Shown piece by piece: positions 8,512-60,014 of a stretch of 64,000 bases of DNA. The notes under the pieces were generated by a model, which worked only from the letters and a program-made list of their open reading frames with translations, was not told the origin of the DNA and ran no database searches. The stretch is from a virus, in the IMG/VR virus record IMGVR_UViG_3300038463_000401; one strand, written 5' to 3'. Numbering within the stretch: the first letter of the stretch is position 1; each line of letters opens with the position of its first letter. The position numbers were made by a program, and so were the translations under genes.

Positions 8512-8578
8512 GTGTTCTCCAAAATAATCTGTGGTGTAATCTCACCACAAGTCTTTTACCCAGTGCGCAGCACTTCTT

Positions 8579-8785
8579 TCAAGCCTTCGGTTTGTTATCC
8601 AGCTCAGAGATCCGAGCGCGCACTTGCAGAAGCCGCATGTTCGTCCTGTCCATGTCGCCCTGTTCTTCCGCCGTCTTCTCCTGCGACGACATGTAGCGGG
8701 ACATCTTGCTCATGAGCGAGTGCTCTTCGTTGATAAGGTTGTCACGGAGGGTGGCGTCGTCTTGGGAGTATTTGTCCATGGTCAT
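8579..8785 (-). CDS. small coiled-coil protein
   Basis: GGAGG SD; heptad-like pattern. Confidence 0.6.
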   Translation of the reverse strand: MTMDKYSQDDATLRDNLINEEHSLMSKMSRYMSSQEKTAEEQGDMDRTNMRLLQVRARISELDNKPKA

Positions 8786-9815: not shown

Positions 9816-9889
9816 TTGTGTTCTCCTTTTAGGGTCGGGGCAACTGGCTTCGCCAGCGACCCAACCCGTAAAATATAGACAGGCTGTAA

Positions 9890-9920
9890 AGCAAAGTCCA
9901 GCGTTGATCTGGACTTTGCT
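9890..9920 (-). terminator. 12-bp perfect hairpin, probable terminator
   Basis: agcaaagtccag-7nt-ctggactttgct, directly after the ORF ending at 9926. Confidence 0.6.
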
Positions 9921-9925
9921 CTTGG

Positions 9926-10165
9926 TTACTGCGCAGCAGGCTCCTCAGCGTTCAACTTATCCTCAATCTGACCCTGCGGCGTTGCCTTATACGCCGTCAT
10001 GTCCTCGATGAAGACGTTCAGCGCCTCCTCCACCGTCTTGCCACGGCGCGGCGGCGGGCGGTCAAAGCGCATGTACTCGACGACTAATTGGCCATCGGCC
10101 AACTTATGGACTTCGATTGGCCTGCCTGCTAACTCAGCGGCCTTCTTCATTAATTCACTGATCAC
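9926..10165 (-). CDS. hypothetical protein
   Basis: ORF in operon orientation. Confidence 0.6.
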   Translation of the reverse strand: MISELMKKAAELAGRPIEVHKLADGQLVVEYMRFDRPPPRRGKTVEEALNVFIEDMTAYKATPQGQIEDKLNAEEPAAQ

Positions 10166-10385
10166 GATCTAGAACCTCCCTGATTCTGAACGATAGTTCA
10201 CTGCCGTCAAAGCTTATGAGGGCGCTGATCATGGTGAGCTTCTCTTCCGCCTGCTTAAGCGACTGGCGCGCGCCGTAGAGCTCGGCCGCCACGATACCGA
10301 AGTGGCTCGCCAAAACAACCTGCTGCGCAGCGGTTGGGTTGCCCTGGCTCATGCGGAGAAGACGGCCAAGCTCTTTATCGTCCAT
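10155..10385 (-). CDS. hypothetical protein
   Basis: ORF in operon orientation. Confidence 0.6.
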   Translation of the reverse strand: MDDKELGRLLRMSQGNPTAAQQVVLASHFGIVAAELYGARQSLKQAEEKLTMISALISFDGSELSFRIREVLDRDQ

Positions 10386-10388
10386 GGT

Positions 10389-10625
10389 TCACCAAATGAA
10401 AACTGTGACGGGGACAGCGCCTACGTCGGTGACGTCGGAATGGAGTCTCCAAGCGTCGCCGGGCACAGCATACTGGTATTCAATGTCTGCATCAAACGGT
10501 GGCTCTCCTTCCCACTCGTCCAGCCACTTTTGTTTAAAAAACTCCTTTGACACGTGGCCCAAGAGCAGGTCTGCAACCGGGGTCTCCTCGGGGCCGATCG
10601 TGACTAGCTTTGCATCACTCGCCAT
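10389..10625 (-). CDS. hypothetical acidic protein (MASDAK...)
   Basis: Start trimmed to reduce overlap. Confidence 0.5.
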   Translation of the reverse strand: MASDAKLVTIGPEETPVADLLLGHVSKEFFKQKWLDEWEGEPPFDADIEYQYAVPGDAWRLHSDVTDVGAVPVTVFIW

Positions 10626-10959
10626 AAAGCCATAACCCGTCTTCCGCGCGTAGCAAGCCGACGTGCGCATTGCGGCCGGATATGAAAATGCCGTGGGTAC
10701 CGTCCGGACGCCGCTGCAGCGACGCACCCTCTACTGAGGTAACAGCCTCCGCCACCCGCCCATCCTGAAAGGACGAGACCTGGACTAGGACGCCGAAGCC
10801 AGGGATCAGCATCGCCTTGGTCGACTTCATCCACCCGCCAGCAACCGAGCTGGCCTTGCAGACCAGCTTCCACGTATCAGGATCGCCGGCGGTCTTGGTG
10901 TCCGGCACCTTGTCTGGGAACTCGTTTGACGAAGTTACATCGAGTGCTTTGTCGCTCAT
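10615..10959 (-). CDS. conserved phage hypothetical protein
   Basis: WKLVCKASS..GWMKSTKAM..VLVQV..AEAVT pattern recalled from other phage proteins. Confidence 0.65.
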   Translation of the reverse strand: MSDKALDVTSSNEFPDKVPDTKTAGDPDTWKLVCKASSVAGGWMKSTKAMLIPGFGVLVQVSSFQDGRVAEAVTSVEGASLQRRPDGTHGIFISGRNAHVGLLRAEDGLWLYGE

Positions 10960-11159
10960 CTTAGTTTCCAGTCAGCTCAAGAAGTTCCCTAAAGAACCAG
11001 GCCACAATAGCCCAGCCACAGACCAAGCACACCAATGCAAAGGCGAAGCTGCAAAGCCTCTCCTTAACTGTGTAATACCTCATCATAATCCTTTCAGTAT
11101 CAAAAGGACGGCCGCTGCCAGCACTGCGGCTGCGGCCACTGCGTAAGTGAGCGTAAGCT

Positions 11160-11648
11160 TCAAAGCCACCCGGCGCCCTTTCCTGCGCGGACTGGTTCTT
11201 CTTTCTTCGAAAAGAAATCCGAAGCGTCGTGGTACTTGAGGCCGGCGCGCTTGGCCGCCTCCTCGTCGCTAGGCAAATCGCCGACCATAAATGACTTGCT
11301 CAAGTCGATACCGTGCTTCTCGGCAAGTTCATGGATCATGCCCGGGTTGGGCTTGCGCGTAGGGTGATCGCCCATGTGTGGCGAGTACGACATATCGTCG
11401 AAGACATAGCCAAGACGGTGGTCAAGATCCGCGAGCGCCTTCTTCACCTTTTCATGGGTTGTATAGCCCATGGCGATGCCGCCCTGGTTGGACACCGCGA
11501 AGATCTTGTAGCCTTGGGCTTTTAACTCTTTGAGCTTCTCCTTGCGGCCCGGCATGACGACCTGATCTTCTGGGGTATCCGGAGTGATCTTACCGGACTT
11601 GGAAACTCGAATAGTCGAGTCCAAGTCAAAAAATGCAGCCTTACTCAT
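11160..11648 (-). CDS. HAD-IIIA phosphatase (GmhB/HisB/PNKP-phosphatase-like)
   Basis: FFDLDST, SNQGGI, RKPNPGMI, SFMVGDLPSD. Confidence 0.88.
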   Translation of the reverse strand: MSKAAFFDLDSTIRVSKSGKITPDTPEDQVVMPGRKEKLKELKAQGYKIFAVSNQGGIAMGYTTHEKVKKALADLDHRLGYVFDDMSYSPHMGDHPTRKPNPGMIHELAEKHGIDLSKSFMVGDLPSDEEAAKRAGLKYHDASDFFSKKEEPVRAGKGAGWL

Positions 11649-11985
11649 TAGTTACCTCAGCGTCGATCGTGCTGGCCTGCCGCACCTTCTGCTCAGCAGC
11701 CATGGCCACGGCCTCCTTCCGGTACTCCTCTATGTCTGCACCGACGAACTGGCAAGCCAACTGCTCCATCCGCAACTCGTCGCAGCAGATGTAGTTGATG
11801 CTCCGAAGGAACCGCATGATCGCCATCGCCGCGGCGTGCTTGGGCCTGTTCAAGACCACTGCGGCATGATGCGGATATTTGGCTTTCAGCTCTTCGTCGG
11901 TGAGCCACCGCTGCGCGGCATTGGCTAAGCCGACGAGCTGGACGATGTCTTGGACCGTCTCAAGATCCTGGCTTTGCTCCGCCAT
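11641..11985 (-). CDS. hypothetical protein (MAEQSQ...)
   Basis: GAGG SD before the internal ATG of ORF 11641..12207. Confidence 0.55.
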   Translation of the reverse strand: MAEQSQDLETVQDIVQLVGLANAAQRWLTDEELKAKYPHHAAVVLNRPKHAAAMAIMRFLRSINYICCDELRMEQLACQFVGADIEEYRKEAVAMAAEQKVRQASTIDAEVTNE

Positions 11986-12238
11986 GTGCCGCCTCATATT
12001 TGTCGAAAGTTTCGTTGATGCTCCTGATGGCGTCAGCCCGCAGTGCCTTAAGCTCCTCCGGCGTGGACACTTCCAGCACCTGCAGCGGGAGGCCCACCTC
12101 ATGTGGCTTGCCATCAACCAGCATACGGCCCATGACCGCCGGGGCCCACTGGTGCGGGCCGATGCGCATAGAACGCAGTTCGTTAGTGGAGACCAGCGGC
12201 CCGTCAATTAACGTGCAGACCAGAATAACCGTGGTCAT
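11960..12238 (-). CDS. hypothetical protein
   Basis: Coupled to the upstream ORF. Confidence 0.55.
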   Translation of the reverse strand: MTTVILVCTLIDGPLVSTNELRSMRIGPHQWAPAVMGRMLVDGKPHEVGLPLQVLEVSTPEELKALRADAIRSINETFDKYEAAHGGAKPGS

Positions 12239-12462
12239 CTCTTCAGCTCCTTAATCGCAGCGGAGTGAAGTTCGAGGACGGCGGTGCGGACGCGGCTGAC
12301 CTCTCCCCGATAGTAAGCGATCTGCTCCCAGCATTTCTTGTTGGGTTCCCCTTCAAGCGAAGCCTCAGCGAGCTTCTCGTAGTGCTCAAGGCGTGCTTGG
12401 AGGGCTTTCAAATCTGTTGTAAGGCTTTTCTGCAAGGACTCGTTTACTGGCTTCGGTTCCAT
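12235..12462 (-). CDS. small coiled-coil protein
   Basis: GGAGAACAC RBS. Confidence 0.65.
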   Translation of the reverse strand: MEPKPVNESLQKSLTTDLKALQARLEHYEKLAEASLEGEPNKKCWEQIAYYRGEVSRVRTAVLELHSAAIKELKR

Positions 12463-12811
12463 AGATGTGTTCTCCTCTTAAGTTTTCAAACTTAACGTAC
12501 TGGTCGTAACGCGTCGGGGCAATAAGGATCTCTAGCCAGCCTGCAGCCGTGCGCCGGGCATGCCGCGTCGGCGCCTTCGCCAGCCCGTCGGCGACGGCCA
12601 ATAAGCCCTCCGCAGCATGGGCGAAGAGCTTCATGTCCTCTCGCTGCGCCTGGCCGCCGCGCTGTGCGATCGCACGGTGGTTCAGCCAGTTGGCAAGGTT
12701 ATAGACTTCGACGTTGTTGAGGTATGCAGGAGGGGCTTGGTATGCGCCGGCGGAGGATTCCTTCCAGACGCGCCAGACTTCATGTAGCCGCCACCGGAGG
12801 CGTTTCAGCAC
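12386..12811 (-). CDS. hypothetical protein
   Basis: GTG start after GGAGAACAC. Confidence 0.55.
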   Translation of the reverse strand: MLKRLRWRLHEVWRVWKESSAGAYQAPPAYLNNVEVYNLANWLNHRAIAQRGGQAQREDMKLFAHAAEGLLAVADGLAKAPTRHARRTAAGWLEILIAPTRYDQYVKFENLRGEHIYGTEASKRVLAEKPYNRFESPPSTP

Positions 12812-13199
12812 TTGTGTTCTCCTTGAGCTGCTTCAGCTCGTATTCCAATCTACGCACGTCTTGGTGGGCGTGGCCAAGGTCGGTCATGAGGTTCTCAAAC
12901 AGCTTGTCACCGAGGACATACTTGTCAAAGCCCTTCTCACTTCCGATCTGTTTGACCGTCTTGAGCAGCAAGGCATAGCCTGCTTCGTCTAAGATCTCCA
13001 AGACGATCTTAGCGCCTTCCCTCTCGGACTCAGGGATGGCCTCGTCCTTCTCGTAAGGACGAGATAGTTGGGTGAAGACTATGCCATAAAAGGCATTTGG
13101 CGGGTCATCTTCGGGGCCACTGATGCAGATGCCCACGCCCACGTCTTTAAAGCCTAAAAGTACCTTGAACCACTTGCCGTCCTCAGAAACCGTGATCAT
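12780..13199 (-). CDS. hypothetical protein
   Basis: GGAGAACAC RBS. Confidence 0.65.
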   Translation of the reverse strand: MITVSEDGKWFKVLLGFKDVGVGICISGPEDDPPNAFYGIVFTQLSRPYEKDEAIPESEREGAKIVLEILDEAGYALLLKTVKQIGSEKGFDKYVLGDKLFENLMTDLGHAHQDVRRLEYELKQLKENTSAETPPVAAT

Positions 13200-13243
13200 G
13201 TGTTCTCCTTAAAGTAGGCTGCGATGGCAAACGCCACAGCAAC

Positions 13244-13534
13244 CTACGAAACGATCGTGCCCCCCGAAAACATCGGGTAATTTAGCAAGATGTGGTAGAG
13301 GTTGTTGAGCGCCGTTGCCAGCGAAGTCGTTGTCAGCGGATCCTGGGCACCGCTCTGCGTCACGCCCTGCGTGTACATAGGCGACATGCCCGCGGCGTAG
13401 TCCGCGTACGAACCATAGCCGCAGATGGTCAGGTTTGCCACAGTGTTGACGAAGTCGATCTGAATACGGGTAACGACCCAATACGTTGCCGGCACGCCGG
13501 TGTTATTCGGGTCGATGCTTAGGCTAATCGGCAT
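13244..13534 (-). CDS. hypothetical beta-rich protein with virion-like composition
   Basis: T/N/G/Y-rich; ATYWVVTRIQIDF. Confidence 0.65.
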   Translation of the reverse strand: MPISLSIDPNNTGVPATYWVVTRIQIDFVNTVANLTICGYGSYADYAAGMSPMYTQGVTQSGAQDPLTTTSLATALNNLYHILLNYPMFSGGTIVS

Positions 13535-13537
13535 GAA

Positions 13538-13792
13538 TTATCCTATGAAAGTGGGGGGAGTTGTCTTCACGTTCCACGTCGAATCTGTATGACACACCGG
13601 GCATTGATAAATCTCGTCACCACCTAGGATCTTCTGACGCACCCAGTCGGCATTGGTCAAGAGGTGGTCTCCCTTCGGGCACTCCATGGTGATGCCCGCG
13701 AGCGACGCACGGCGCTTGGAACGGATGTACCACACCAAGGCGATGATGCCTAGGACGCCGAGAACGATGCCACCGATGACGAGGAAAATCAT
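13538..13792 (-). CDS. single-pass membrane protein with Zn-ribbon
   Basis: N-terminal TM, basic stop-transfer segment, CPKGDH..CPVC. Confidence 0.65.
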   Translation of the reverse strand: MIFLVIGGIVLGVLGIIALVWYIRSKRRASLAGITMECPKGDHLLTNADWVRQKILGGDEIYQCPVCHTDSTWNVKTTPPTFIG

Positions 13793-41712: not shown

Positions 41713-43806
41713 ATGGCTGTCGGTAGACCATTAGGCGCAAAGCTTTTCCTAGAGGGCATCGAGGTGCCTTTGCTCGGCGCCACGATTACGTCGACAGTAG
41801 ACCAAGCCTCCATCGCTTATGTAGACCTGGTGCCGCAGCAGGCGATTAACGACATCAAGCCGCGGACGCATGTCGTCTTGGCCGTGCGGGACTTCAACAA
41901 CCCGGCGCTAAATTATCCATATGTTAACGCCTGGGAAGGCGAGGTTTACGGCTTCAACTTCGGTAAGACGGTTAGTTCCCGCTCATTCAGCATTTCCTGC
42001 ATAGACACAACGAGCTACTGGGATAATGCGCTGTGCTACTTCATGAATACGCAGCAGTCCCTCGGCAGCGCAGGTATGGCGGCTTTACCGGCAGCTCTCA
42101 ACTATACAAGCGCGAAAGCGCAGGGGTTCGAGGTAATCCCGACGAACGACGGGGCGAACGTAAACTACTTCAAAACGGTTATTGATAACGCGCTAGCCCT
42201 GGTAAACAACCCGCCGCCAACGTTCCTCACTGCCTTTGTGGCGGTTATAAAAAGCATCACAAAGGTTAATGATTTTTATAACTTTGCCGAGTCTAGGCTG
42301 CGGATACAGGACCGCATCCTCCTCAACGACAGCGGCCTTCTGCCCAATCTTATTAGCAACGCACAAGGCGCGACCTGGTTCAATGGCATTATTGGACAAT
42401 CTGGCGGGTTTACGTCGTTGCGCAGTGTTATCAACGATCTTCTCGGGCTCATCTTCCATGACAACGTATCCGTTCCATTCCCTGCACGAGTGACCGCTCC
42501 TCCCCTCGCCGGCGCAAAGTTGACGGGGACTGTGGGATCAAAAAACACGACGCTGGGCAGCTATCTCTTCAAGCCAAACCTCTACATGTCCCCGCCGCCA
42601 ATGTGCAACGTCTTCTTCCCCGATGAGTACTCGCAGTTTCAGTACTCTCGCAGCTTTTTCAAAGAGCCGACGCGCCTGATCTATAGCCCGGAGCTACCGT
42701 TCTTTCAAAGCGGGGAATCCGTTGCGCTGCCCATGAACTACCAGCCCGATTCCCTTCAGGCGTTCATGTATCACTTGGATTTCAACAACCCGGTGAACTA
42801 CGTGAACAAGTCGGACACCGGTATTGCGAGCGACCCCGGTCACTACCTGGACGAGATCGTGCAAGGAGACCCCGCAGAGCCTTATGTTGCCAGCACCCCG
42901 CTCGTGCGCGAGGGTCAATTCCTCACTAACGAGGAGCGTGTTAAGGGTATCTGGATGGCGCGCGAGAGCCTGTTCCCCGCGGCGACGATGTTCAATGTCG
43001 CCGCGTCTGAGGGCTCCAATGCTATGGCATACAGCTTTACCCAGCAGATTGCGCATTATCTCTTCTACAAGAAGAGGTTCGAGACGCGGCAGTTGCAGAT
43101 CACGTCTCACCTTAAACTATCGGTGGTCCCTGGGTTCAACGTGTTGGTCTTGGATGACAGCGACGCTCAGCAAAACGTAGTTGCCTATTGCTCGTCGGTC
43201 ACGCACCGGATTTATGCTACGGAGGGTGGGTACACCAACGTGTCGCTCTCCTATGCTAGGACGCCAGACGAGGAGGCGCAGGCATCTTCTAACGGCAGCG
43301 AGCCCCCGATCCCGCCATGGTACAACCCAGACATCTTCGGGAAGATCACCGCACCGCCGGCATCGAAGTCCGCCCCCACCGAAGTAGCAAACGCGGGCGG
43401 GCTCCTAGTCTCGACCAGCAAGCTCTCTACGTTTTATCAATCCCTCCTTGGGGACAAGGGCTACCGGGCAGTTACCGACTACGCGCAGAAAGAGCCCACG
43501 CTGATCGGCGCGGTAGCCTACTTGCTCGCTGAGTATAGGACTAGGCGCGCGCTCGGGTCTGAGGATGTTCAGCAGTACATTTCTAGCCTTACCGGTCGTG
43601 ATTATGTAAGAGTGGAGGACACGATGGCCTTCCTTGGGGCCTCTCTTCCGAAGGATGTTAAGCTAGATCCGACGACGCTGGTCACGTTTACTGGCGGGGC
43701 TTTTAACCCCAAAGACGCTGTTAACGGCGCAGTGACCACCCTAAGGCAAACACCGATCCTGGCCTACGCGGCCGCGCTAAAGGCGTACCGAGGTTTCCGT
43801 GGCTGA
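41713..43806 (+). CDS. putative baseplate hub protein
   Basis: KLFLEGIEVP N-terminus; C-terminal VVPGFNVL..SVTHRI..TNVSL hub-like pattern. Confidence 0.6.
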   Translation: MAVGRPLGAKLFLEGIEVPLLGATITSTVDQASIAYVDLVPQQAINDIKPRTHVVLAVRDFNNPALNYPYVNAWEGEVYGFNFGKTVSSRSFSISCIDTTSYWDNALCYFMNTQQSLGSAGMAALPAALNYTSAKAQGFEVIPTNDGANVNYFKTVIDNALALVNNPPPTFLTAFVAVIKSITKVNDFYNFAESRLRIQDRILLNDSGLLPNLISNAQGATWFNGIIGQSGGFTSLRSVINDLLGLIFHDNVSVPFPARVTAPPLAGAKLTGTVGSKNTTLGSYLFKPNLYMSPPPMCNVFFPDEYSQFQYSRSFFKEPTRLIYSPELPFFQSGESVALPMNYQPDSLQAFMYHLDFNNPVNYVNKSDTGIASDPGHYLDEIVQGDPAEPYVASTPLVREGQFLTNEERVKGIWMARESLFPAATMFNVAASEGSNAMAYSFTQQIAHYLFYKKRFETRQLQITSHLKLSVVPGFNVLVLDDSDAQQNVVAYCSSVTHRIYATEGGYTNVSLSYARTPDEEAQASSNGSEPPIPPWYNPDIFGKITAPPASKSAPTEVANAGGLLVSTSKLSTFYQSLLGDKGYRAVTDYAQKEPTLIGAVAYLLAEYRTRRALGSEDVQQYISSLTGRDYVRVEDTMAFLGASLPKDVKLDPTTLVTFTGGAFNPKDAVNGAVTTLRQTPILAYAAALKAYRGFRG

Positions 43807-44530
43807 AGACCAAAAAGCCGAAGAGATGGACATCTTCCATAAGTGGAAGCAGACTGGCGAGAAGAAACACTTCCAGGCTCTTTATAACTCCATGAAGCCG
43901 CTGATCTATAGCGCGGCGCAGAAGGCAAGCTATGGCAGCAATATTCCAGAAAGCGCGCATCGTATCTATGCTGCCCAGAACTTTCTTGAAGCTCTTCGGA
44001 CATTCAAGCCAGGCACCGGCGCCTCCCTCCAAACCCACGTCTATGGCTCGGTCCACCAGAAAGCCAAGAGGCTCAACTATACGTATGGGAACCTCGGGTT
44101 TATTACTGAACCAAGAGCGGCCAAAGTGGGCCTATTCCAAACAGAACACGCTAATCTTCGAGACAGTCTCGGTCGTGAGCCGACAACCCAGGAACTGGCT
44201 ACAAGGCTCAACTGGAGCGTCAAAGACGTAGCCAACCTGCAGAACGAAGTCCATAAGGACTTGGCGCTTGCCGAGGGGGTTGAGGAGCAAGCTACTGTCG
44301 AGGGCTCGATCGACGAAGAGAAGCTGGAGATGCTCTACTTCGACCTACTGCCAGAAGAGAAAGCAGTCTTCGATTATGTGTTCGGTAAGCATGGTAAGCC
44401 CAGGTTGCTTAAGCCAAACAACAAGATCGACTACGAGCAGCTTGGCCGGTCATCAGGTTACTCCGCGTCTAAGGCGCGCGCGATCATGATCAAGATCAAA
44501 GACAAATACTCAAAGGCTCTTAAGAGATGA
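43799..44530 (+). CDS. RNA polymerase sigma factor (sigma70 family, group 3-like)
   Basis: Region 2 (LEALRTFKPGTGASLQTHV), region 3 (LGREPTTQELATRL), region 4 HTH. Confidence 0.85.
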   Translation: MAEDQKAEEMDIFHKWKQTGEKKHFQALYNSMKPLIYSAAQKASYGSNIPESAHRIYAAQNFLEALRTFKPGTGASLQTHVYGSVHQKAKRLNYTYGNLGFITEPRAAKVGLFQTEHANLRDSLGREPTTQELATRLNWSVKDVANLQNEVHKDLALAEGVEEQATVEGSIDEEKLEMLYFDLLPEEKAVFDYVFGKHGKPRLLKPNNKIDYEQLGRSSGYSASKARAIMIKIKDKYSKALKR

Positions 44531-46773: not shown

Positions 46774-47205
46774 ATGGCAGCAGGCAGCTTAAGTGGGGAC
46801 ATCCAAGTAATTACCGCAGACCCGGTAACGGGCCGAATCACGTTTGGTCTTGTCCCGCGAATCCTTACTGGTATGCCAAAGCTTATTCAAATCGTAGTAT
46901 TATCGTTACTAAACAGCCCGGGAAAGGATATACTTAAGCCGGCGGATGGTGGCGGTATTTTGAATCTGGTCGGCAGCAACATCTCGTCGACCGACTCCAC
47001 GATGATCCTGGCTGAGCTGAACCGGGCCGTGAAGAAGAGTCAGACCGAGATCATAAATTACCAGACAGGGTTAGGCGCGCCGGCGGAAGAGTCATTAAAG
47101 GAGCTTCAAGTGCTTAGCCTCACGGAGGGCGAAAACATCGACGAAGTCCTTTTAAGTATTAGGATTATCAACCAGGCTGGCCGCATCTCCGACGTGGTGC
47201 TCTAA
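46774..47205 (+). CDS. baseplate wedge protein, gp25/GPW-like
   Basis: KLIQIVVLSLL..PG..GGG..L; precedes the J-like gene. Confidence 0.65.
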   Translation: MAAGSLSGDIQVITADPVTGRITFGLVPRILTGMPKLIQIVVLSLLNSPGKDILKPADGGGILNLVGSNISSTDSTMILAELNRAVKKSQTEIINYQTGLGAPAEESLKELQVLSLTEGENIDEVLLSIRIINQAGRISDVVL

Positions 47206-49643
47206 TGGCTACACTGCCCATCGCAGAATACCTAACCGAGCATCTTAGCGAGTTCGACCCGACGTTCGACCTTCGGCAGGGCACGGGCTTTGAGCAGCTC
47301 TTCTTCGAGCCGCTCCAGTTCTTAGTCCAGCCGCTCATCGATGAAGTCAATACGCTCATCGTTGCGCAGAGCTTCCGGCGCATTCTTCTGACCACCGATC
47401 CCGATACGTTTGACGCAGAATCGGTGGACTCCCTCGCTAATAACCTCTTCGTTTACCGGAACACCGGTTCTCTAAGCGGCGGCGTGGCGCGCGTTTACTA
47501 CAGCAACCCGGTCAACCGCGAGTGGCCAGTCAGCGGGGCACTTTTCGCCGGCAGTAACGGGGCGAGCTACTCCAACCCTGCACCGTTCCAGATCACCTCT
47601 GCCAGTATGAGCACGCAGATCGAGGGTGGTCAATACTACTACGACATCCCGGTAGCTGCGACGACCACCGGCAACAATGACCTCATCGCCGGCGGCCTTG
47701 TCTCTCTGAATAACGACCCCGACTACCTCTCAGTAACGAACAAGCTAGCTTTTGAAGGCGGCGAGCCGGCTGAGACGAACACCCAGCTAATTACCAGAAC
47801 GCAGAACTCCATTGCTGTTCGGGATATGGTTACGGGCAAGGGGTTCAACGCGATCTTCTTCGGCAACTTCCAAGCGTTTCTTTCAGAAGTGCAGCCGATC
47901 GGCTTCGGCGACCCTGAGATGATGCGCGACGTGGTTTATAACACGCACATTGGCGGGCGCGTCGACGGGTACGTGAAGACGTCTAGTATCACTCAAGGCT
48001 CAAAAACCTTTGTTGGTCTGACCTTGGACACCACGCGGCAATCTTTTGCAAGTACGAACCTGGTGATGACGGGCACCAATCCGCAAAACGTGGGCAACCC
48101 AAACATCGACGAGTCAAACAACCGCGCTCCGATTGTGCAGCAGATCAAGCTTTCGACTGGTGCTAGCTACACGAGCACTGTCACTTCCTGGCCGGTAAGC
48201 CTGGCCTCGAACTCATACCTATACCTCGGCATAGACGGGACGTTCTTCAATATCCCAGTTGCCGGTTTAAACCCCAGCGCTACCACGCTGAACGAAGTGA
48301 TCAACGCTATTAATACGGCGTTCGGCTTTACCGTTGCTAAGCCTGTTGGCGCGACGTACAAGCTCGTGTCCCCCACCATTGGCACTGGGAGCCAGATCGC
48401 CACAGGCACCCCACCTATCGGAGTTAATGCGGCCAGCACCCTTGGTCTTGGGGCTGGTGTCATCAATCAAGGCACTGGGCCGATTGTCTTCATCAAGGGC
48501 GTGGACTACACGGTTGATGATTTAAACGGAACCATCACGCGCATACCAAAGTCCCCCTCCCTAGTTCCACTGCAGTCCACCGGGGCGACCGCGGCGAACA
48601 GCAGCACGTTTACAGATGTGACCGCTGGCGTGTTTACTAGCGTAGTCGTGAACGACATCCTGACTATCTCGACCGGCCCTGATGCTGGTGATTACCGCGT
48701 GCTTTCCAACGGTGGGCCGTTTGTTACTGCAATCACGCTAGATGAAAAACTGACCACTACTGCTAGTAGCGTGCAATACTCCGTCTCTCAACCCGGCATC
48801 AAGAACAATGAGACGGTGTACGTTCAGTACTACTTCAACCCGCTCTCGATCGATATCGGCGGCTTGGTCGTGTTGGACACCTATGGCGCAGTGCGTGGCA
48901 TCCGCCCTGGGCGCGCGAGCTCTGTCATCACCGACACTGCGTTCTTGCGCATCAACTCCATCGAGCTGATTGACCCGCTAACTCTCGAGCCGATCGGGAC
49001 TGTGCTTAATGGCCTTGGCGGCTATGGCGCCGGCCCATACGGCGGCGGTCCTTACGGTATTGGCTCAGGCGCTGATTATTACCTCGTAGTGAACGTGCCC
49101 ACCGCGCGGTTCTCGGCCTTTGAGGACAGCTACATCGTCATAAGCTCGGCCTACTTGGGCTTTAGCTTTCAAGTCAATTACGACTACGTGCCGGAGATCC
49201 AAGAGCTACATGCCTTCGCGTCGTCGGATGCCGAGCGTGTCCTCGACGGCGATGTGTTGATGAAACACATGGTGCCGGCGTATGTGGCAGGGAACATAAA
49301 CTACAAGTATGACCAGACGAATACCGCTATCCCCAACCAGGCCACCCTTCAAGCCCTGGTGAACGAGTTCATCTCTGGTCGCCCATCCGGCACCGATTTA
49401 GTCTTCTCAGAGATCGAGCAGTTCATCATAAGGGTTACAGACCCCTATGACCGGTTTGGTACAGAGGTGGACAACTTCCAGCTCACCGCCACTATCTTGA
49501 ACGAAGACGGGTCAACTACTACGGTGAATGGGACGAACAAGCTAGTCATCCCGACCAACACGCCGCAGTTCACGACTAAGCCGCTATCCCCGCGGATTGC
49601 GCATTGGATTGGTGAGAACGTGACCTTAACGCTGTTGCCGTGA
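47205..49643 (+). CDS. baseplate J-like wedge protein
   Basis: N-terminal F.P.L, FEGGEPAETNTQLITR..R.MVTG.G baseplate-J pattern. Confidence 0.75.
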   Translation: MATLPIAEYLTEHLSEFDPTFDLRQGTGFEQLFFEPLQFLVQPLIDEVNTLIVAQSFRRILLTTDPDTFDAESVDSLANNLFVYRNTGSLSGGVARVYYSNPVNREWPVSGALFAGSNGASYSNPAPFQITSASMSTQIEGGQYYYDIPVAATTTGNNDLIAGGLVSLNNDPDYLSVTNKLAFEGGEPAETNTQLITRTQNSIAVRDMVTGKGFNAIFFGNFQAFLSEVQPIGFGDPEMMRDVVYNTHIGGRVDGYVKTSSITQGSKTFVGLTLDTTRQSFASTNLVMTGTNPQNVGNPNIDESNNRAPIVQQIKLSTGASYTSTVTSWPVSLASNSYLYLGIDGTFFNIPVAGLNPSATTLNEVINAINTAFGFTVAKPVGATYKLVSPTIGTGSQIATGTPPIGVNAASTLGLGAGVINQGTGPIVFIKGVDYTVDDLNGTITRIPKSPSLVPLQSTGATAANSSTFTDVTAGVFTSVVVNDILTISTGPDAGDYRVLSNGGPFVTAITLDEKLTTTASSVQYSVSQPGIKNNETVYVQYYFNPLSIDIGGLVVLDTYGAVRGIRPGRASSVITDTAFLRINSIELIDPLTLEPIGTVLNGLGGYGAGPYGGGPYGIGSGADYYLVVNVPTARFSAFEDSYIVISSAYLGFSFQVNYDYVPEIQELHAFASSDAERVLDGDVLMKHMVPAYVAGNINYKYDQTNTAIPNQATLQALVNEFISGRPSGTDLVFSEIEQFIIRVTDPYDRFGTEVDNFQLTATILNEDGSTTTVNGTNKLVIPTNTPQFTTKPLSPRIAHWIGENVTLTLLP

Positions 49644-49653
49644 TAGGTGTAAA

Positions 49654-50487
49654 ATTCCATTCAAATCACAAGCCCAAAGACGGAAATTCTATGCCATGGC
49701 CAACCGTGGCGAGATGTCTCCAGAGACTGTAAAGACGTGGGAAGAGCACACGCCTAAGGGCAAGAAACTCCCTGAAAGGGTAGGTATGAAGAAGAAAGCT
49801 TTCTTCGAAGGATTCGACAAGCGCGCCGACCAAGTCGCTGGCGCTCAAGGTGAGCCAGGAGAGCCGCTACCGGCAGAAGGCGCAGCGCCTGGCGGTGCCG
49901 CGGGTCCGCCGCCTAACCAGCCGGAGAAGCTTTTAAAGTGGAATCCGGCGGGCGGCGTCGACCCTCGCTCTCCGGAAGAGATGGCAGCTGCTCAGGCGGT
50001 CGATTTGATAACCCTCCCTGAGGGCGTGGACGCGGCCTCTTGTATGAACTGCCAGTTCTTCCGGATGCTTGACCCGGCGTTAGGAACAGGTTTCTGCACT
50101 AACCCGAATGTCAAGCTGGACGTCACGACGAAGATGCACTGCTCGCAATGGAACGCACCGGATACCTACCGGGCGTGGGAAGCACTCGACCCCTCGGCCG
50201 TGCCGGATGCGGGCATCATGGGTGAAGCGGGTTCGCTGCAAGACGGCACGATGCCGATGGAGCCGGGCGCGGTCGGGCCAGATGGACAACCGCTGGCTCC
50301 GGAAGGTGGCGCGCCGCCGGAAGGCGAGCCGAAGCCCAAAGCCAAGCCGAAGGCTAAGCCCAAAGAGAAGTCTGAGGGCGGTGGCGGCACCAACGTGCAC
50401 GTCCACGTCGGCGGCGCTGGCGAGAAGAAAGAGGAGAAGGGGTCGGAGAAGAAGGCCTACGCCTTCTGGAACGGGTTTGACACTTGA
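49654..50487 (+). CDS. motif-bearing protein 1 with a 4-Cys (HiPIP-like) domain; probable ATT start
   Basis: Frame open from ATT 49654 (PFKSQAQRRKFYAM..); CMNCQFF..GFC..V..HCSQW; two KKA-FxxGF motifs. Confidence 0.7.
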   Translation: MPFKSQAQRRKFYAMANRGEMSPETVKTWEEHTPKGKKLPERVGMKKKAFFEGFDKRADQVAGAQGEPGEPLPAEGAAPGGAAGPPPNQPEKLLKWNPAGGVDPRSPEEMAAAQAVDLITLPEGVDAASCMNCQFFRMLDPALGTGFCTNPNVKLDVTTKMHCSQWNAPDTYRAWEALDPSAVPDAGIMGEAGSLQDGTMPMEPGAVGPDGQPLAPEGGAPPEGEPKPKAKPKAKPKEKSEGGGGTNVHVHVGGAGEKKEEKGSEKKAYAFWNGFDT

Positions 50488-50747
50488 GTCCTTCCTTCTG
50501 GCAATCCTTCGAGAAGCGCGCGTCCGGATCTGGATCCGGTAATGCAGCGGGCGGAGGCTTTACCGGAACGGGTAAGGGCAACCTTGGGACTGCGGAGCGC
50601 GATCACATCAATGGTACGATGCGCAGCCCCCAAGACACCAAGGTCGACACAGCACTGCTGGATCGCGACCGCACCTGCCGAACTGAAGATCCGTTCAGCA
50701 CTGGCCCTGAGTTCCAAGACGAGACCAACCCGCATATTAGGTACTAG
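50484..50747 (+). CDS. motif-bearing protein 2 (87 aa)
   Basis: TTG overlapping the upstream TGA; starts SFWQSFEKRA. Confidence 0.65.
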   Translation: MSPSFWQSFEKRASGSGSGNAAGGGFTGTGKGNLGTAERDHINGTMRSPQDTKVDTALLDRDRTCRTEDPFSTGPEFQDETNPHIRY

Positions 50748-50748
50748 C

Positions 50749-51678
50749 GTGGCACAGGAAGCGTCATCGCCGGGCAAGAAGCGCTTCCACAAGCGCGTCG
50801 ACGCTGCGCTTGCCAAGGGACATTCATTACTGATCCATTACAAGAAGCTGAACGGTCGCACAGTTAAGCGTAAGATAGAGCCTCGGTCGTGGCGCGGCCA
50901 CACCTTAGTCGCATACGATCACAAGAGAAAGGCCGTCCGGTCTTTTAGAATGGAAAGGGTGAAGCACATGGAGAAGGCCGCGGGTATGAATTATTACCGC
51001 CTCCCCAAGGGTCATCCCCACTACCACTTAACGACGCAGTCTGGCCCTAACGCCGGAGCAATAGCCTCCGTTCACCCCGTCAAGCAATGGGAGCAACATA
51101 AAGTGGACGAATCTTCTATGACCAGGACAGGGGGACCCTCTTTAAACAAAGAGGCGGCCGATGAACCCAAACACGACCCCGCCACCTTCAGCCATTGGGC
51201 TAGCGGACTTGGCAAGAGATTTGCCACGATAGACAATTCGCTCGAGAAGGAGCTGATTGAGAAGAAGGCGTTTTGGGTTGGGTTCTCCAAACAAGCCTCT
51301 GATAAGCACAAGACGCGCTCAAAATATATAACTGCGGGATCTGCACTAGGTGGCGCTGGCGCAGGTGCCCTAACCGGGGCCGAAGAGGGTTTTAGCCCTA
51401 AACATACGGCGTTGCTAGCCGCAGGGGGAGGGGTCCTTGGCGGCTTAGCCGGATATCTTGGTGCTAAGCGCAGCGAGAAGCACGCCTCTGCCTTCGCCCA
51501 CGCCGCCGAGCTCGGCGGCCTCGGTGTCCTCGCCGCACCGGCAATCCAGCACCTCCGCGGCAAAGAAATGAGCGAAGGGGCTAAGGCCAAGACCGAAGTT
51601 GCTGGCCTCGGCATCCTAGCGGCGCCCAGTCTCCATGCCGCGGGCAAGGGCTTGCTTGCCAAGGCGATGAAGCGCTAA
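50749..51678 (+). CDS. motif-bearing protein 3: WYL domain plus glycine-zipper helices
   Basis: GTG 2 nt after the upstream stop; IHY..G..RKIEP..LVAYD..RSFRMERV; EKKAFWVGFSKQA. Confidence 0.75.
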   Translation: MAQEASSPGKKRFHKRVDAALAKGHSLLIHYKKLNGRTVKRKIEPRSWRGHTLVAYDHKRKAVRSFRMERVKHMEKAAGMNYYRLPKGHPHYHLTTQSGPNAGAIASVHPVKQWEQHKVDESSMTRTGGPSLNKEAADEPKHDPATFSHWASGLGKRFATIDNSLEKELIEKKAFWVGFSKQASDKHKTRSKYITAGSALGGAGAGALTGAEEGFSPKHTALLAAGGGVLGGLAGYLGAKRSEKHASAFAHAAELGGLGVLAAPAIQHLRGKEMSEGAKAKTEVAGLGILAAPSLHAAGKGLLAKAMKR

Positions 51679-53252
51679 TGCCGTCTAGCCAATACCTCGA
51701 CTTTATCGGCTCAGTCTGGGAGAACCTCCCGGACGTTGATAAAGCACGTCTTGGCGAGCTCTGGTTCGGCTATGAGCGCGTGTTCGCGTCGGTCTACCAG
51801 ACGTTCATGGAGGCCCGGCTCAACATCGCCCAGCAGACGATGCTGCCGTATTCGACACAGCGCTGGCTGCCATACACGTTCGACAGCGCAACCTTCGTCA
51901 GCCAGCCCGCGGTGGTCACGTCGAATCAAGACCTATCCCTAGGGATCAACCTCGCTGTGCGCTCCTCGCTCTACATCAAGCTCAATGGCGGTGCGCCCGT
52001 CCTTGTAAATATACAAGGCCTGAACCCCGGCAGCACCAAGGTCACCGAGATCATAGCCAAGATCAACGCGGCTTTTAACTTCAAGTTCGCGGCCGGCCTT
52101 TTCAGCAATTCGATCTTGCAGCTCACGTCGAACATCTCTGGACTGTCCTCAAGCATAGAGATCCTCCCGACGCCGAACCCTATGCAGGACGCGTCAGAGT
52201 TTGTGCTTGGCGTCATGAGCCCGGCGCTATACCCGAAGTTCCCCTACATCTATTCGCTGCCCTACGGCAAAGCCGCGTCCATACCCACGATTCAGGACAA
52301 GGTCCGTGATGAGTCGGTTACTGTCTTTTTGCAAGAGACAACAGACTACGAGCTCCTGGGCAATAATCTTATTGCCTTCGCAGCCGAGCCCCCGGCGGCT
52401 ATGTGGGCGCGGCGCTCTCTTTTTGACCAAGAGAACCCGTGGAATAACTTTGGTTTTCTGATGGGCATTTACGAGACGAACTCGCCTCGTTATGTCGATG
52501 TTTTGCAGGGGTTGTGGTACGCATTCTGGACTGGGCCCACACCAAACAATGTGAGGAACTCCCTCTATCTGCTGTTTGGTTTACCAACCGCACAGCAGAA
52601 TGGGGTTGTGAGCGGCCTTACCGCGACGACGATCACGCTGACTAACGCAGACAACACCGTGTCTACGTTCTCCATTCCGGGTAACCTCGACGCAATGGTA
52701 GTTCTAGGCCAAGAGGTGAAGAAGTTTGACCCACTTGTAACCGGCATACAGGTTTTCGATAAAGTCAATTCCCCTGGGTTCATAACGGAACAGATCGGGC
52801 GTGCCGGTATACAGCGGTTCCTCTTGCCTGAGGCGACGCGCGGGCCAGGCGATACCGACGAGACCAAGGCTATGCGGATGCTCGAGGAGCACTGCTTCCT
52901 GCCGCAGATCTCAGTTAATGCTTTTATCAATCAAGATATTAACTTAGGGAATGTGACGACGTTCCTGAACGCTATCAAGCCGCTCAGCAAAACCTATCTG
53001 TTCCAGATCGTTGTCGGGAACTTCCTCGACCCGCTGGGCCTTGACGACATGGCTGATCCTTCCGTGGACATGGACATCACAGAGAACGTAGACTCCAACG
53101 AGACAACGCTCCAGCCATCCACCGTGCTGCTGCCCTATGAGACCAACCCGAACGTCGGGCTCAATCTGGACCAGAACGGTGTATTATTGGAGGAGTCCTT
53201 GGAAATCGACGTTTACAGCTTCGGCGTTTTGGTCGACTCTTTTACCGCCTGA
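51678..53252 (+). CDS. baseplate wedge/tail protein (P2 gpI-like)
   Basis: QGLWYAFWTGPT..LYLLFGLP pattern; coupled start. Confidence 0.6.
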   Translation: MPSSQYLDFIGSVWENLPDVDKARLGELWFGYERVFASVYQTFMEARLNIAQQTMLPYSTQRWLPYTFDSATFVSQPAVVTSNQDLSLGINLAVRSSLYIKLNGGAPVLVNIQGLNPGSTKVTEIIAKINAAFNFKFAAGLFSNSILQLTSNISGLSSSIEILPTPNPMQDASEFVLGVMSPALYPKFPYIYSLPYGKAASIPTIQDKVRDESVTVFLQETTDYELLGNNLIAFAAEPPAAMWARRSLFDQENPWNNFGFLMGIYETNSPRYVDVLQGLWYAFWTGPTPNNVRNSLYLLFGLPTAQQNGVVSGLTATTITLTNADNTVSTFSIPGNLDAMVVLGQEVKKFDPLVTGIQVFDKVNSPGFITEQIGRAGIQRFLLPEATRGPGDTDETKAMRMLEEHCFLPQISVNAFINQDINLGNVTTFLNAIKPLSKTYLFQIVVGNFLDPLGLDDMADPSVDMDITENVDSNETTLQPSTVLLPYETNPNVGLNLDQNGVLLEESLEIDVYSFGVLVDSFTA

Positions 53253-58400: not shown

Positions 58401-59454
58401 GTTGGTCACGGTTCGTCGCGAAGGCACATCGACCGGTGGCGTGCTACCGCCAGCGCCGGGCAACCTCTGGTCCGACCAGGTCGACCACGACATCGTCCCG
58501 CCAGCGGACACTTACAAGGTTGGCACGGCCTCCTCTCCGTTTGCAGAAATGCACACGGATAACGGCTTTCTTAAACAGCTATCTATTGCCACTGCGCTCG
58601 GGAACTGCACGCTGCTTCGCACCAAGACGAACGGCGCGGGCACCACAATCGCCGCGGGCTACCCCGTCTCTCTTTATTCGGATGGGCAGATCTACCCCGG
58701 CATGGCCCTCGGTGCGCCAAACGTCACCTCATATGGTATCGCGCTCCAGGCGATTGCTCCTGCCGCCCAGGGCAAGGTTCTTCTATTCGGCCTGGCAGTT
58801 CCCGGCGTCCTTACCGGCCTGGGCTTCTCGCCTGGCGATACGGTCTATATCTCCGAGACTGGCACATACACCAATGGCTCGACCGGCCTCGGGGATACCG
58901 GCGATGTCATCGCTAGGATCGGCTGGGCTGACTGCGCGGATGCAACCGTATCTGGAACTGCAGTCGACCTCGTTCTCAATTACGAGAAAATTCTCGAAGT
59001 TGAGAATCCGGCCGAAGACCGCATCCTTACAGTCTCAGGGCAGACCGACTATAACTTGCCCACGCTGGTGCTCAGCGCCGACAACTCCATTCTGGATTGC
59101 CAGCTCTGGTACGACACTGGCTACCAACGGCTTGACGGCTCTGGTAGTGAGGGGTTCAAGAAGCTTTCGACCACGTCCATCCGACTGTCATCCGCCCCAA
59201 CTGACGACGGACGCGAGATGGTCTTCCGCAAGGAAGGCATCGCGATCACCACCTCGGGCGGGGGCTCGTTCGATATCGCTAACATTGTGGAATCCCCGCA
59301 ACCGTCCCCGTCCTTCGCGGGCTCGCTGGACATCGGCAGCCTGACCAGGCCATGGTCTGGTATCATCGTGAAGGACGATACGACCAACCAAGTCTGGCGT
59401 TTATCCATCGATAGCGGCGTGATCCAAGCCGTACAAATAGGTACGTACCCATGA
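55498..59454 (+). CDS. large multidomain tail/virion protein (1318 aa)
   Basis: Propeller-like beta repeats, two GDG..F/VDG-type adaptor domains, one DUF2190-like domain. Confidence 0.7.
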   Translation: MTANKINGYGAPYRSQTFQEQASYQTNRNGLLAVSAPVTSGGGTVTVPEFSFIQNGLIVDTEGTRTFSVPSLAAPYYLVVTAPTPSQLDDLLFSFAKTPEDLTTNDIIVAAYDGYEWRSPQLLSVDGVYKDIDQANIDFGRVGPYSGLQTTLSGSNYLNSPGVIVDPNGLRQELLNQASFPVVVTDPDYPRVDRIVYRKPADSPNRIGIREFLLGGTYAASPQSSHGAVALANTKVHGPTKVLIGTDNAAHVLCATGYGGSFQIFYTKISSDRTTMLVAPMALQATTESGFDAAIDGSNNIHLITVNSSHIYYAKYGPTGSNLVAATLIDAQVTPNTNPTVSIDPANTKVFVAYQSLLGASNNQIFFTTRDLSGNLITAPANVTGNASNLQTPSIFVTGDLIVYIAWCDTTLAKIYFQTFTDIGGALTSPTYVSGAVNRIGYSALTDGALAPKVWVTDNQSVFVTFLQNKGSSLYGLSIWNDGVSFMQTLLASGENFTAYALYVDSTFNGVDLVLAQASTTDYVKLAGVNVTFTLNLAGTAAASVATVRDARGSMFHAWADPLASGFQTAYTTASIKDIGPDVLNNTYTVVLTSSQLLILKSLFSGEQPQIGDQVTVSGSGAGNNGAKTISLVETVSFVTTNDYYRITVTAPFASVEHLPPSTLGAFASPNGNALHVLKSTSELTTNAFQLVTMATDLLLARISMPGSHIVNYLPPGVTVALDATLFVPHGNNVSIDWGATTLGDLTISGGLQLLDMLHDQNYTLVDGSYPMVDDDALYVVCDGVDFAPTPQVTAVNTLPFSTPIIVLGVTRDGKFNPALLAVAAITQLDVGEVDVVGEDLPLSQRERLGILSETSYRPYSVGTEYVINEGMDHAQAIGALDTQIGAIVNNNPKEAYWIGDGSTTIFDISTATLTNGTFAWLNDATHPDITCDYDGRKLPFDPLFANGGFRKNSTTAIQLAAAPDIGTLVTVRREGTSTGGVLPPAPGNLWSDQVDHDIVPPADTYKVGTASSPFAEMHTDNGFLKQLSIATALGNCTLLRTKTNGAGTTIAAGYPVSLYSDGQIYPGMALGAPNVTSYGIALQAIAPAAQGKVLLFGLAVPGVLTGLGFSPGDTVYISETGTYTNGSTGLGDTGDVIARIGWADCADATVSGTAVDLVLNYEKILEVENPAEDRILTVSGQTDYNLPTLVLSADNSILDCQLWYDTGYQRLDGSGSEGFKKLSTTSIRLSSAPTDDGREMVFRKEGIAITTSGGGSFDIANIVESPQPSPSFAGSLDIGSLTRPWSGIIVKDDTTNQVWRLSIDSGVIQAVQIGTYP

Positions 59455-60014
59455 CAGTTTACGCAAAAATGCGCGTCGACGGGCTTATCCTCAACCCGGT
59501 GCCTGCGTCCAGCGCGGGCGACGGGGAGATGTATAACGACCAGGACAGCACCCAGATATCCGTCAAAGGATCTGGCAGTGACACAACGCCGATTGGTCCC
59601 TCAGGAAGTAGCAGCAGCCCGCTCATCAAGGTGATGGAGAATCTCTCTGGCGGCGATATCCCTGCGGGCTCTGACGTCTGCAAGCGACCCGACGGCTCAA
59701 TCGCCATGGCGAGCAGTGACACCCCGGGCTTCGAGAACGTGATCGGGATCGCGAACGTCGACATCCCAAATGCGGCCACCGGCGCGGTCGGCCTGCTCGG
59801 CCCGAATTTCCCCGCAGTGCTTACTGGCCTAGGCTTCACTCCCGGGGACATCGTTTACATGGCGGAAAGCTCTGGCCAGTACACGAATGACCTGACCACT
59901 TTTACAAACAGCGACAGAATCGTTCAGGTCGGGATCGCGGATTGTGCAGCGGGCACAGCGAGCACTACAGTAACAGATCTACTCGGCGTCCTCGTTTCGG
60001 AGGTCGTCCCTTAA
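59451..60014 (+). CDS. virion decoration/cement-like (DUF2190-like) protein
   Basis: GIA..VLTGLGFTPGDIVY..G.IADC, shared with the neighbouring gene. Confidence 0.6.
   Translation: MTVYAKMRVDGLILNPVPASSAGDGEMYNDQDSTQISVKGSGSDTTPIGPSGSSSSPLIKVMENLSGGDIPAGSDVCKRPDGSIAMASSDTPGFENVIGIANVDIPNAATGAVGLLGPNFPAVLTGLGFTPGDIVYMAESSGQYTNDLTTFTNSDRIVQVGIADCAAGTASTTVTDLLGVLVSEVVP

Follow-up and report, generated by a model that had tools for sequence, protein, structure and literature searches.

Why three coupled phage genes share one peptide: a portable tag and its possible use as a load-and-cut address

Why should three adjacent and otherwise unrelated genes of one phage carry the same short peptide? The question is raised by the 64,000-nucleotide stretch of IMG/VR virus record IMGVR_UViG_3300038463_000401 (hereafter the window, meaning the whole of the DNA analysed), a piece of a very divergent large phage with a plus-strand structural operon that extends from about 35 kb to the window end. 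Within its baseplate genes lies a cassette of three genes, g1, g2 and g3, which we regard as real and translationally coupled open reading frames (ORFs). A sequence-only reading of this DNA had singled them out for a common peptide, here called the FW tag, and had proposed that it directs proteins into the capsid and is cut there by the prohead protease. The tag proves to be widespread; the role that we favour for it, a load-and-cut address, is put forward tentatively.

The FW tag in the cassette and across the lineage

The three genes and their tags are as follows.

49654..50487, plus strand: g1 (277 aa), probable ATT start, with N-module, tag, 4-Cys domain resembling high-potential iron-sulphur proteins (HiPIP-like), low-complexity linker and C-terminal tag (alignment A2)
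49786..49827, plus strand: first tag of g1 with flanking candidate cut sites, M-K-K-K-A / FFEGFD-K-R-A (hydrophobic-x-K-x-A at residues 45-49 and 54-58)
50446..50484, plus strand: C-terminal tag of g1, E-K-K-A-YA-FWNGFDT-stop
50484..50747, plus strand: g2 (87 aa), TTG start overlapping the g1 stop, with the N-terminal tag SPSFWQSFEKRA at 50496-50522
50749..51678, plus strand: g3 (309 aa), GTG start, with WYL barrel, disordered inserts, tag, Gly-rich segment and C-terminal helical hairpin (alignment A1, AlphaFold2 (AF2) model)
51256..51297, plus strand: g3 tag with flanking sites, I-E-K-K-A / FWVGFS-K-Q-A (two hydrophobic-x-K-x-A matches)

A six-frame search of the 64 kb for the core [FWY][FWY].[GS]F[DES] found it at 49801, 50464, 50496 and 51271 only, so that the peptide said to be shared by the three coupled ORFs occurs four times between 49.8 and 51.3 kb and nowhere else in the window. 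All four copies, which lie within 1.5 kb, read as F-[WF]-x-[GS]-F-[DES]. The claim that the tag is conserved in protein and not in codons also held, as copies compared at identical residues use the same codon at merely 2/5 to 4/5 of them. A DNA-level repeat or regulatory element was rejected, since codons differ between copies and matches to a degenerate pattern use varied codons.

We scored the copies with a profile built from 67 tag instances; as the collecting pattern fixes F0, G3, F4 and K6, this profile cannot prove the invariance of these four positions. The g3 tag scored 25.5 bits, the best in the window, and the first g1 tag 24.2, followed by the g1 C-terminal and g2 tags (9.0 and 8.4); the best score in the reversed window was 3.7 bits. 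Conservation can be read from the g1 family (alignment A2), where every one of the 22 aligned homologues has the G53, F54, K56 and A58 of the first tag. At the other end of the protein, an E-K-x-A island (K266 invariant) and the terminal FWxG[FI] are kept in 22/22 family members. Within the cassette the tag is N-terminal in g2 only, those of g1 and g3 being internal or C-terminal. In the literature library that was searched, no paper had the motif strings.

A search of IMG/VR with the g3 protein alone gave no match, and relatives were retrieved with the g1 family alignment: two genomes rated complete (108 kb and 166.6 kb) and a fragment of 17 kb. Searched as a degenerate DNA pattern, FWxGFxKxA matched 12, 9 and 3 times in these three relatives (12 in the 166.6 kb genome, G001, and 9 in G002), and a control pattern 0 times. 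The profile found 13 sites of at least 15 bits in G001, plus three weaker ones, against a maximum of 10.3 bits in the reversed genome; the claim that unrelated proteins share the tag is thus borne out by 13 to 16 sites in a single genome. Most are N-terminal and read M-x-x-FWxGFEKxA. Among the proteins that bear them are an SNF2 helicase (3e-17), a NUDIX hydrolase with a tag at each end (7.6e-18), a thioredoxin (1.8e-6) and several small Gly-rich proteins, and several tagged genes are found within structural blocks, downstream of the capsid gene and of the sheath gene.

A strict tag pattern retrieved 62 IMG/VR stretches with 104 non-redundant tags. Sixty-nine are N-terminal, the start codon lying nearly always exactly three codons ahead of the F; 28 are internal, with K-x-A just upstream in 20 of them, often as M-x-K-x-A-F-W; and 7 are C-terminal. 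Two G001 proteins also end in the tag, one encoded after the helicase gene (...EEKKAFWRGFEKRRG-stop; L004 5389-5571) and the other being the Nudix protein (...KEAFWRGFRKGAA-stop; L006 11895-12485), so that C-terminal tags are not peculiar to g1. As far as sequences can tell, the peptide is a portable tag carried by unrelated proteins and found at any position.

Joints between modules and the K-x-A signal

If the tag is portable, what does it join? The cassette proteins can be divided into the following modules and sites.

49654..49782, plus strand: N-module of g1 (PFKSxAQRRKFYA...WE.HTPKGKKLPE), two helices (AF2 predicted local distance difference test (pLDDT) 85-89)
49924..50187, plus strand: 4-Cys domain, HiPIP-like (C130, C133, C148, C163; AF2 pLDDT 70-82)
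50776..50982, plus strand: WYL-like beta-barrel, residues 10-78, ending M-E-K-A-A (50968-50982)
51142..51156, plus strand: candidate cut site L-N-K-E-A ahead of the ADEPKHDP module (hydrophobic-x-K-x-A match)
51325..51465, plus strand: Gly/Ala-rich, glycine-zipper-like segment (Pfam Gly-zipper_YMGG 0.0046, under the cut-off)
51472..51675, plus strand: S-E-K-H-A, then the C-module, a helical hairpin with two E-x-x-G-L-G-x-L-A-A-P repeats

Comparison of homologues shows that these modules occur fused or split exactly at the tag and K-x-A joints. One protein (P0018) unites N-module, WYL and hairpin; another (P0012) runs N-module, tag, HExxH segment, WYL, tag and hairpin; and two (P0030, P0031) consist of N-module, linker, tag and hairpin. 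Some homologues start right at the tag, for example with MNFWSGFDKRA. The N-module is found elsewhere fused to DnaJ, SET or DUF5661 domains, or straight to WYL and the g3 hairpin, and homologues whose N-terminal part is a WYL domain, a J-domain or something else have the g3 C-module in common. In the 166 kb phage (L002) a J-domain takes the place of the WYL barrel, with the same tag and hairpin behind it. The shortest g3 forms (146-149 aa) are made of WYL, tag and hairpin; a search for longer fused forms found one protein of 552 aa, which has K-K-T-A at its joints.

The extra EKAA and KEAA sites of g3 had been placed at apparent domain boundaries, and there they lie. EKAA falls exactly at the end of the modelled WYL barrel, where M74, K76 and A78 (M-E-K-x-A) are invariant in 12 homologues (alignment A1) whether or not a tag follows; KEAA precedes the ADEPKHDP module, which in homologue P0002 follows H-E-K-K-A. 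An [ED]-K-x-A site also stands ahead of the hairpin in nearly all of the 12 g3 homologues.

Another group of g3-hairpin homologues (P0021-P0026, P0032-P0036) starts with M-x-x-A-x-x-x-F-x-D-E-L-E-K-[IL]-[AGS]. This start retains the aromatic residue, the hydrophobic position and the E-K-x-A of the tag, though not W-x-G-F, and may be a sister tag.

The tag itself ends in F-[ED]-K-x-A, that is, in the pattern hydrophobic-x-K-x-A, and K-x-A recurs in the head genes of the lineage. Over the whole of G001, [ED]-K-x-A is twofold enriched (60 observed, 30.9 expected), and K-x-A-type sites are most concentrated in the prohead protease and in four acidic scaffold-like proteins on either side of it. The protease domain has a match in phrog_18299 (8.3e-9) but none in Pfam. 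Among isolated phages, Salmonella phage Arash comes nearest (capsid protein 34% identical, baseplate J-like protein 27%). Its protease gp222 is homologous to that of G001, with 45% identity over the first 243 residues (E 6.5e-43); gp218 was also considered as the homologue and was discarded, as it has no similarity. In four Arash head-module proteins, hydrophobic-x-K-x-A was observed 9, 8, 6 and 6 times where 0.8, 0.71, 0.51 and 0.95 were expected. Finally, in an alignment of 139 representatives from the capsid protein family, K26 (64%) and A28 (66%) stand out as conserved amid variable columns, and K-x-[AGS] is present at residues 26-28 in 88 of the 139 sequences.

Together these distributions support hydrophobic-x-K-x-A as a candidate head-protease site. 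Maturation protease sites in T4, phiKZ and SPN3US end in Glu (PMC5694885), and by analogy it is their distribution that the K-x-A sites resemble. Cleavage of the T4 gp21 type, after Glu at L/I-x-E, was rejected for the present phages: the recurring site is K-x-A, not x-x-E. We also observed that Arash gp220, gp222, gp223 and gp225 (L017) are saturated with hydrophobic-x-K-x-A, all 8 K-x-A sites of gp223 fitting the longer pattern.

Payload domains, gene limits and surroundings

The sequence-only reading had called the payloads a 4-Cys metal domain, a WYL domain and glycine zippers. The WYL domain is retained: its profile match (Pfam PF13280, 2.2e-7, 31.2 bits) exceeds the curated cut-off of 21.8, and the predicted structure is an SH3-like beta-barrel of a helix and five strands (pLDDT 78-93), with no helix-turn-helix partner domain. 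The 4-Cys domain stands as far as its cysteines go, all four being invariant in 22 sequences (A2) and set apart in a HiPIP-like manner. Its 12 best Foldseek matches are all HiPIPs, although weak (E 0.26-1.6; TM-score 0.33-0.58 on the target); Pfam HIPIP appeared at 0.078 in homologue P0044 only, g1 itself having no Pfam match. It would be unusual for a possibly packaged protein to hold an Fe-S or Zn site. For the glycine zipper, the Pfam match stays below the cut-off.

Between the WYL barrel and the C-module, g3 is modelled as entirely disordered. Its hairpin consists of helices 244-269 and 276-308 (pLDDT 76-85), with E254, G257, L258, G259 and E283, G286, L287, G288 invariant (A1). Averaged over 19 residues, the Kyte-Doolittle hydropathy of g3 peaks at 1.48, which is less than the 1.6 commonly taken as the membrane threshold. 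N-module and hairpin are each single-copy per genome. A search of the ESM Atlas with N-module and tag gave low-scoring viral hypothetical clusters and a weak DUF3008 lead only, and g2 had no family match.

The limits of the genes were considered with these surrounding features.

47205..49643, plus strand: upstream neighbour, baseplate J-like wedge protein (phrog_6 2.1e-9; Pfam Baseplate_J 0.0035; homologous to Arash gp13)
49645..49649, plus strand: AGGTG ribosome-binding-like site, 4 nt ahead of the g1 ATT (sequence read)
51678..53252, plus strand: downstream neighbour, Arash gp14 homologue (BLASTP E 4e-6)

The start of g1 must, by comparison with its homologues, lie upstream of the called ATG at 49696. 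Ahead of that ATG the frame encodes PFKSQAQRRKFYA, which matches residues 2-15 of 21 homologues, and the ATT at 49654 pairs with the homologues' Met1 (I1 in A2, 22 homologues); the same alignment shows the g1 architecture to be kept over its full length. The frame holds no ATG, GTG or TTG between the upstream in-frame stop and 49696, and the rare start codon ATT (AUU) is most likely used. Such a start would keep g1 low-copy or make it dependent on coupling to the J-like gene. In related loci g1 homologues start with ATG; two homologous proteins have V as their printed first residue, suggesting a GTG start.

The GTG of g3 (50749) is one base past the g2 stop, and its own stop overlaps the following ATG; the same gene is publicly called as P0001 on a 177 kb contig. 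A programmed frameshift from g1 into g2 was discarded, as the g2 frame does not stay open beyond one codon ahead of its TTG and no slippery heptamer lies in register. Promoter- and terminator-like sites inside the cassette, counted in a scan of the region, are at chance level and give no argument against co-transcription of g1-g3.

Is the cassette part of the baseplate? The order of a 136-139 aa gene (counterpart of 46774-47205 in the window), the J-like gene, g1, g2, g3 and a gene for a 527-530 aa protein is kept in 3/3 relatives (loci L001, L002 and L003), where the g2 homologues (88-90 aa) occupy the same position, carry the N-terminal tag and end in ...NPH[IL][RL]Y. In Arash, the homologue of window 51678-53252 (gp14) directly follows the J-like gene, and no homologue of g1-g3 and no tag was found. 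The cassette, described earlier as an insert in the baseplate operon, is thus an insert relative to Arash, but not within the tag-using lineage, where all three relatives conserve it. Its absence from the Arash junction makes it accessory to the baseplate. We accordingly do not class g1-g3 as baseplate structural proteins; they have no Pfam or PHROG baseplate match. Among GenBank phages no close relative of g1-g3 was found by DNA or protein, the sole match being that of the 4-Cys domain to an uncultured phage of 595 kb (LR756511).

Two other genes of the window were recorded. A sigma-70-like gene (43799-44530; Pfam Sigma70_r3 1.1e-5) lies within the baseplate operon and is the orthologue, at the identical position, of Arash gp10 (38% identity, E 3e-32), which is covered to 100% in Arash virion preparations; it is plausible that this sigma factor is carried in the particle. 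In the fibre region, a 187 aa protein (59451-60014) matches Pfam Phage_cement_2 (2.3e-7), a cement or head decoration family, an unexpected place for such a domain.

Load-and-cut address or docking peptide

What, then, could the tag do? Our preferred scenario, which we hold tentatively and by analogy, is that of a load-and-cut tag akin to the T4 capsid targeting sequence (CTS) but unlike it in peptide and cut site. The cassette would be a single accessory 'cargo train' spread over three translationally coupled genes, in the order two-helix N-module, HiPIP-like 4-Cys domain, small g2 module, WYL barrel, Gly-rich segment and helical hairpin. Two signals would mark it: an address tag of 9-12 residues, x-x-x-F-W-x-G-F-[ED]-K-x-A, with at least 13 sites per genome and usually at the extreme N-terminus; and hydrophobic-x-K-x-A, which ends the tag and also stands alone at other joints. 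The tag would dock its carriers in the assembling prohead, the prohead protease would cut after K-x-A, removing the tags and separating the modules, and the freed modules would exit the particle together with the DNA when the phage infects. Early host takeover or channel formation would be fitting roles for a WYL domain that binds ligands or nucleic acids, for a possible Fe-S domain and for a hydrophobic hairpin. Such a code explains why a site follows N-terminal tags, precedes C-terminal tags and stands on both sides of internal ones, and it explains the interchangeable fused and split forms and the diversity of payloads.

The precedent for a targeting sequence combined with a protease site is T4 (PMC3012670), where the CTS of IPI-III and Alt is, as cited in a later paper, removed by the prohead protease gp21 (Mullaney and Black 1996, via PMC5694885; PMC3012670). 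Like the FW tag, the T4 CTS is a short conserved peptide, mostly N-terminal, on unrelated proteins of one phage; its cargo is diverse and includes enzymes, and it ends in a motif that recurs in scaffold and capsid proteins. The FW tag differs in its unrelated peptide, in the proposed cut after hydrophobic-x-K-x-Ala rather than Glu, in being also internal and C-terminal, and in cargo that comes in fused trains or in split coupled genes. What is new is therefore the peptide, the presumed Lys-x-Ala specificity, the use at any position, and the fused or split trains.

Two other phage systems invite comparison. The giant phages phiKZ, 201phi2-1 and SPN3US process many head proteins, among them inner-body and ejection proteins, at a single short motif. 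Their protease removes a C-terminal part of itself, the heads contain enzymes including virion RNA polymerase, and a role in directing proteins to the prohead has been suggested for the propeptides (PMC5694885). Those propeptides, however, exceed 100 residues, are family-specific and are cut at [SAG]-x-E, whereas a single tag of 9-12 residues serves across families here. Polyvalent proteins and MuF polymorphic toxins share with the cassette the combination of constant modules and changing payloads, including SNF2 ATPases; for them multidomain processing has been predicted and delivery with the DNA proposed (PMC5512222; PMC5576092). The cassette differs in that no MuF, portal or other known virion anchor domain was found, and its payloads are small and often encoded by separate coupled genes. 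A zincin-type HExxH was seen only in the fused homologue P0012, by eye and without a Pfam match.

Outside phages, encapsulin cargo-loading peptides are likewise short and terminal, sit on flexible linkers and bring diverse enzymes into an HK97-fold shell. They differ from the FW tag in sequence and in not being removed, and encapsulins hold no DNA and deliver no cargo.

An indirect link to virus particles comes from the tagged SNF2 helicase of G001. Its orthologue is Arash gp217 (38% identity, E 9e-103), the tag forming an N-terminal extension of about 15 residues on the G001 protein; in both phages the helicase gene follows that of an RNA polymerase. Arash virion preparations contain gp217 in abundance (38 peptides, 1148 spectra), along with polymerase subunits and the sigma factor (PMC10585845). 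The tag-bearing Nudix and thioredoxin proteins gave weak or no matches to Arash orthologues and were not used. Regarding the polymerase, G001 encodes at 7532-13558 (L009/L004) a 2008 aa protein whose C-terminal half matches the Arash RNA polymerase beta' subunit (E 1e-67) and whose N-terminal part shows beta-subunit-like motifs by eye, which points to a phage polymerase with beta and beta' fused. Downstream of it come the genes of a small tagged protein and of the tagged SNF2 helicase.

Several observations weigh against loading and cutting. Plain K-x-A is not enriched in g1-g3 (9 observed, 8.0 expected), and the excess of [ED]-K-x-A (6 against 0.88, p 2e-4) and of hydrophobic-x-K-x-A (7 against 1.47, p 2.5e-4) in these proteins includes the tag's own end and is not independent of the tag. 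It is in head proteins of G001 and Arash and in the capsid family that K-x-A, better taken in its longer form, behaves like a head-protease site. The tag had also been expected in scaffold, capsid and head proteins; this expectation failed in G001, where the capsid protein, the scaffold-like proteins and the protease carry the K-x-A half only. The cassette sits in the baseplate operon, apart from the head genes, so that the head protease would reach the g1-g3 products only if these go to the head. T4 offers no precedent for conserved C-terminal tags or for a tag placed between two modules, and AF2, which draws the tag as a helix, does so with low confidence. As to particles, those of Arash were purified by sucrose gradient only, and the authors, who list 116 proteins, caution on carry-over (PMC10585845). 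Moreover, the helicase is found there without a tag, so the tag is not required for its loading. The untagged helicase, the baseplate location and the lack of the full tag in capsid and scaffold proteins are among the reasons why our confidence stays below an even chance.

An alternative, which we consider unlikely, is that the tag docks to a partner outside the capsid, at a baseplate or tail-lumen site or on an assembly chaperone, and that K-x-A in g1-g3 stays uncut; the receptor might be the g1 N-module or the g3 hairpin. The position of the cassette between baseplate genes, conserved in four phages, speaks for it, as does the contrast between these single-copy modules and a multi-copy tag, and the invariant Gly and aromatic residues would suit a peptide-in-groove contact. 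Tag and cassette are moreover absent together from Arash, but this co-absence is based on a single tagless relative. Docking also leaves unexplained the invariant E-K-x-A islands that lack FW at module ends and the saturation of head scaffold proteins with the same site, and the N-module is present in phage proteins without a strict FW tag as well. In a bolder form, the cassette would be a hub whose N-module or hairpin, built into the baseplate or the lumen of the tail, gathers every FW-tagged protein, the enzymes being delivered via the tail and not the head. This would fit the joint absence from Arash and the constant location of the cassette among baseplate genes, and we give it a slim chance.

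We also doubt, rather strongly, that the tag is an amphipathic membrane-targeting helix, with g3 acting as a membrane protein of the infected cell (in exclusion, lysis timing or as an entry channel). The membrane-targeting sequences of MinD and FtsA are short basic-aromatic amphipathic stretches, movable between proteins and usable at either end, which would accommodate both N- and C-terminal tags. K-K-A-F-W-x-G-F-E-K-R-A resembles the MinD tail in make-up, with a hydrophobic moment of 0.17-0.39 against 0.26; many small tagged proteins have glycine-zipper segments, and the low-confidence AF2 helix would agree. However, the MinD and FtsA sequences have no invariant Gly or fixed register, no flanking conserved K-x-A, and do not occur on a dozen unrelated proteins of one genome. 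An invariant G and F and the fixed M-x-x-F spacing are unexpected for lipid binding, and the invariant Gly and fixed register favour a specific protein contact. Soluble enzymes (SNF2 helicase, Nudix, thioredoxin) are tagged, g1 and g2 have no hydrophobic segment, and the g3 peak of 1.48 remains under 1.6.

The motif might have no function, being a leftover linker or a recombination joint that eases module shuffling between phages. Modules are indeed fused and split at exactly these points in different phages, but codons vary while residues stay, so conservation is not at the DNA level. The invariance of G53, F54, K56 and A58 in the first g1 tag, the 69 N-terminal copies at a fixed distance from the start codon and the C-terminal copy kept in 22/22 g1 homologues likewise make a functionless joint highly improbable. 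Least credible of all is a degradation or chaperone signal setting protein level or timing: an N-terminal Phe-Trp exposed by a K-x-A cut is a classical bacterial N-degron (N-end rule), and internal tags would begin with F after such a cut, but N-terminal copies start M-x-x-F, which is no degron unless trimmed, and nothing in our analysis ties the tag to Clp components.

If the load-and-cut reading is true, a lineage of large uncultured phages (108-177 kb) would select its particle-borne proteins by a two-part code, and the set of proteins that they inject could be read straight from sequence. Their prohead protease would have a specificity unlike the Glu-directed types of T4, phiKZ and SPN3US, and the Arash head proteins offer a testable prediction of this unreported Lys-x-Ala maturation specificity in a cultured phage. 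The same code would explain how modules can be encoded as fused or as split genes without loss of function, and it would provide a short, position-independent tag for loading foreign proteins into capsids. For the cassette described here, it predicts that the infecting phage brings into its host a WYL domain, a hydrophobic hairpin and a possible Fe-S domain.

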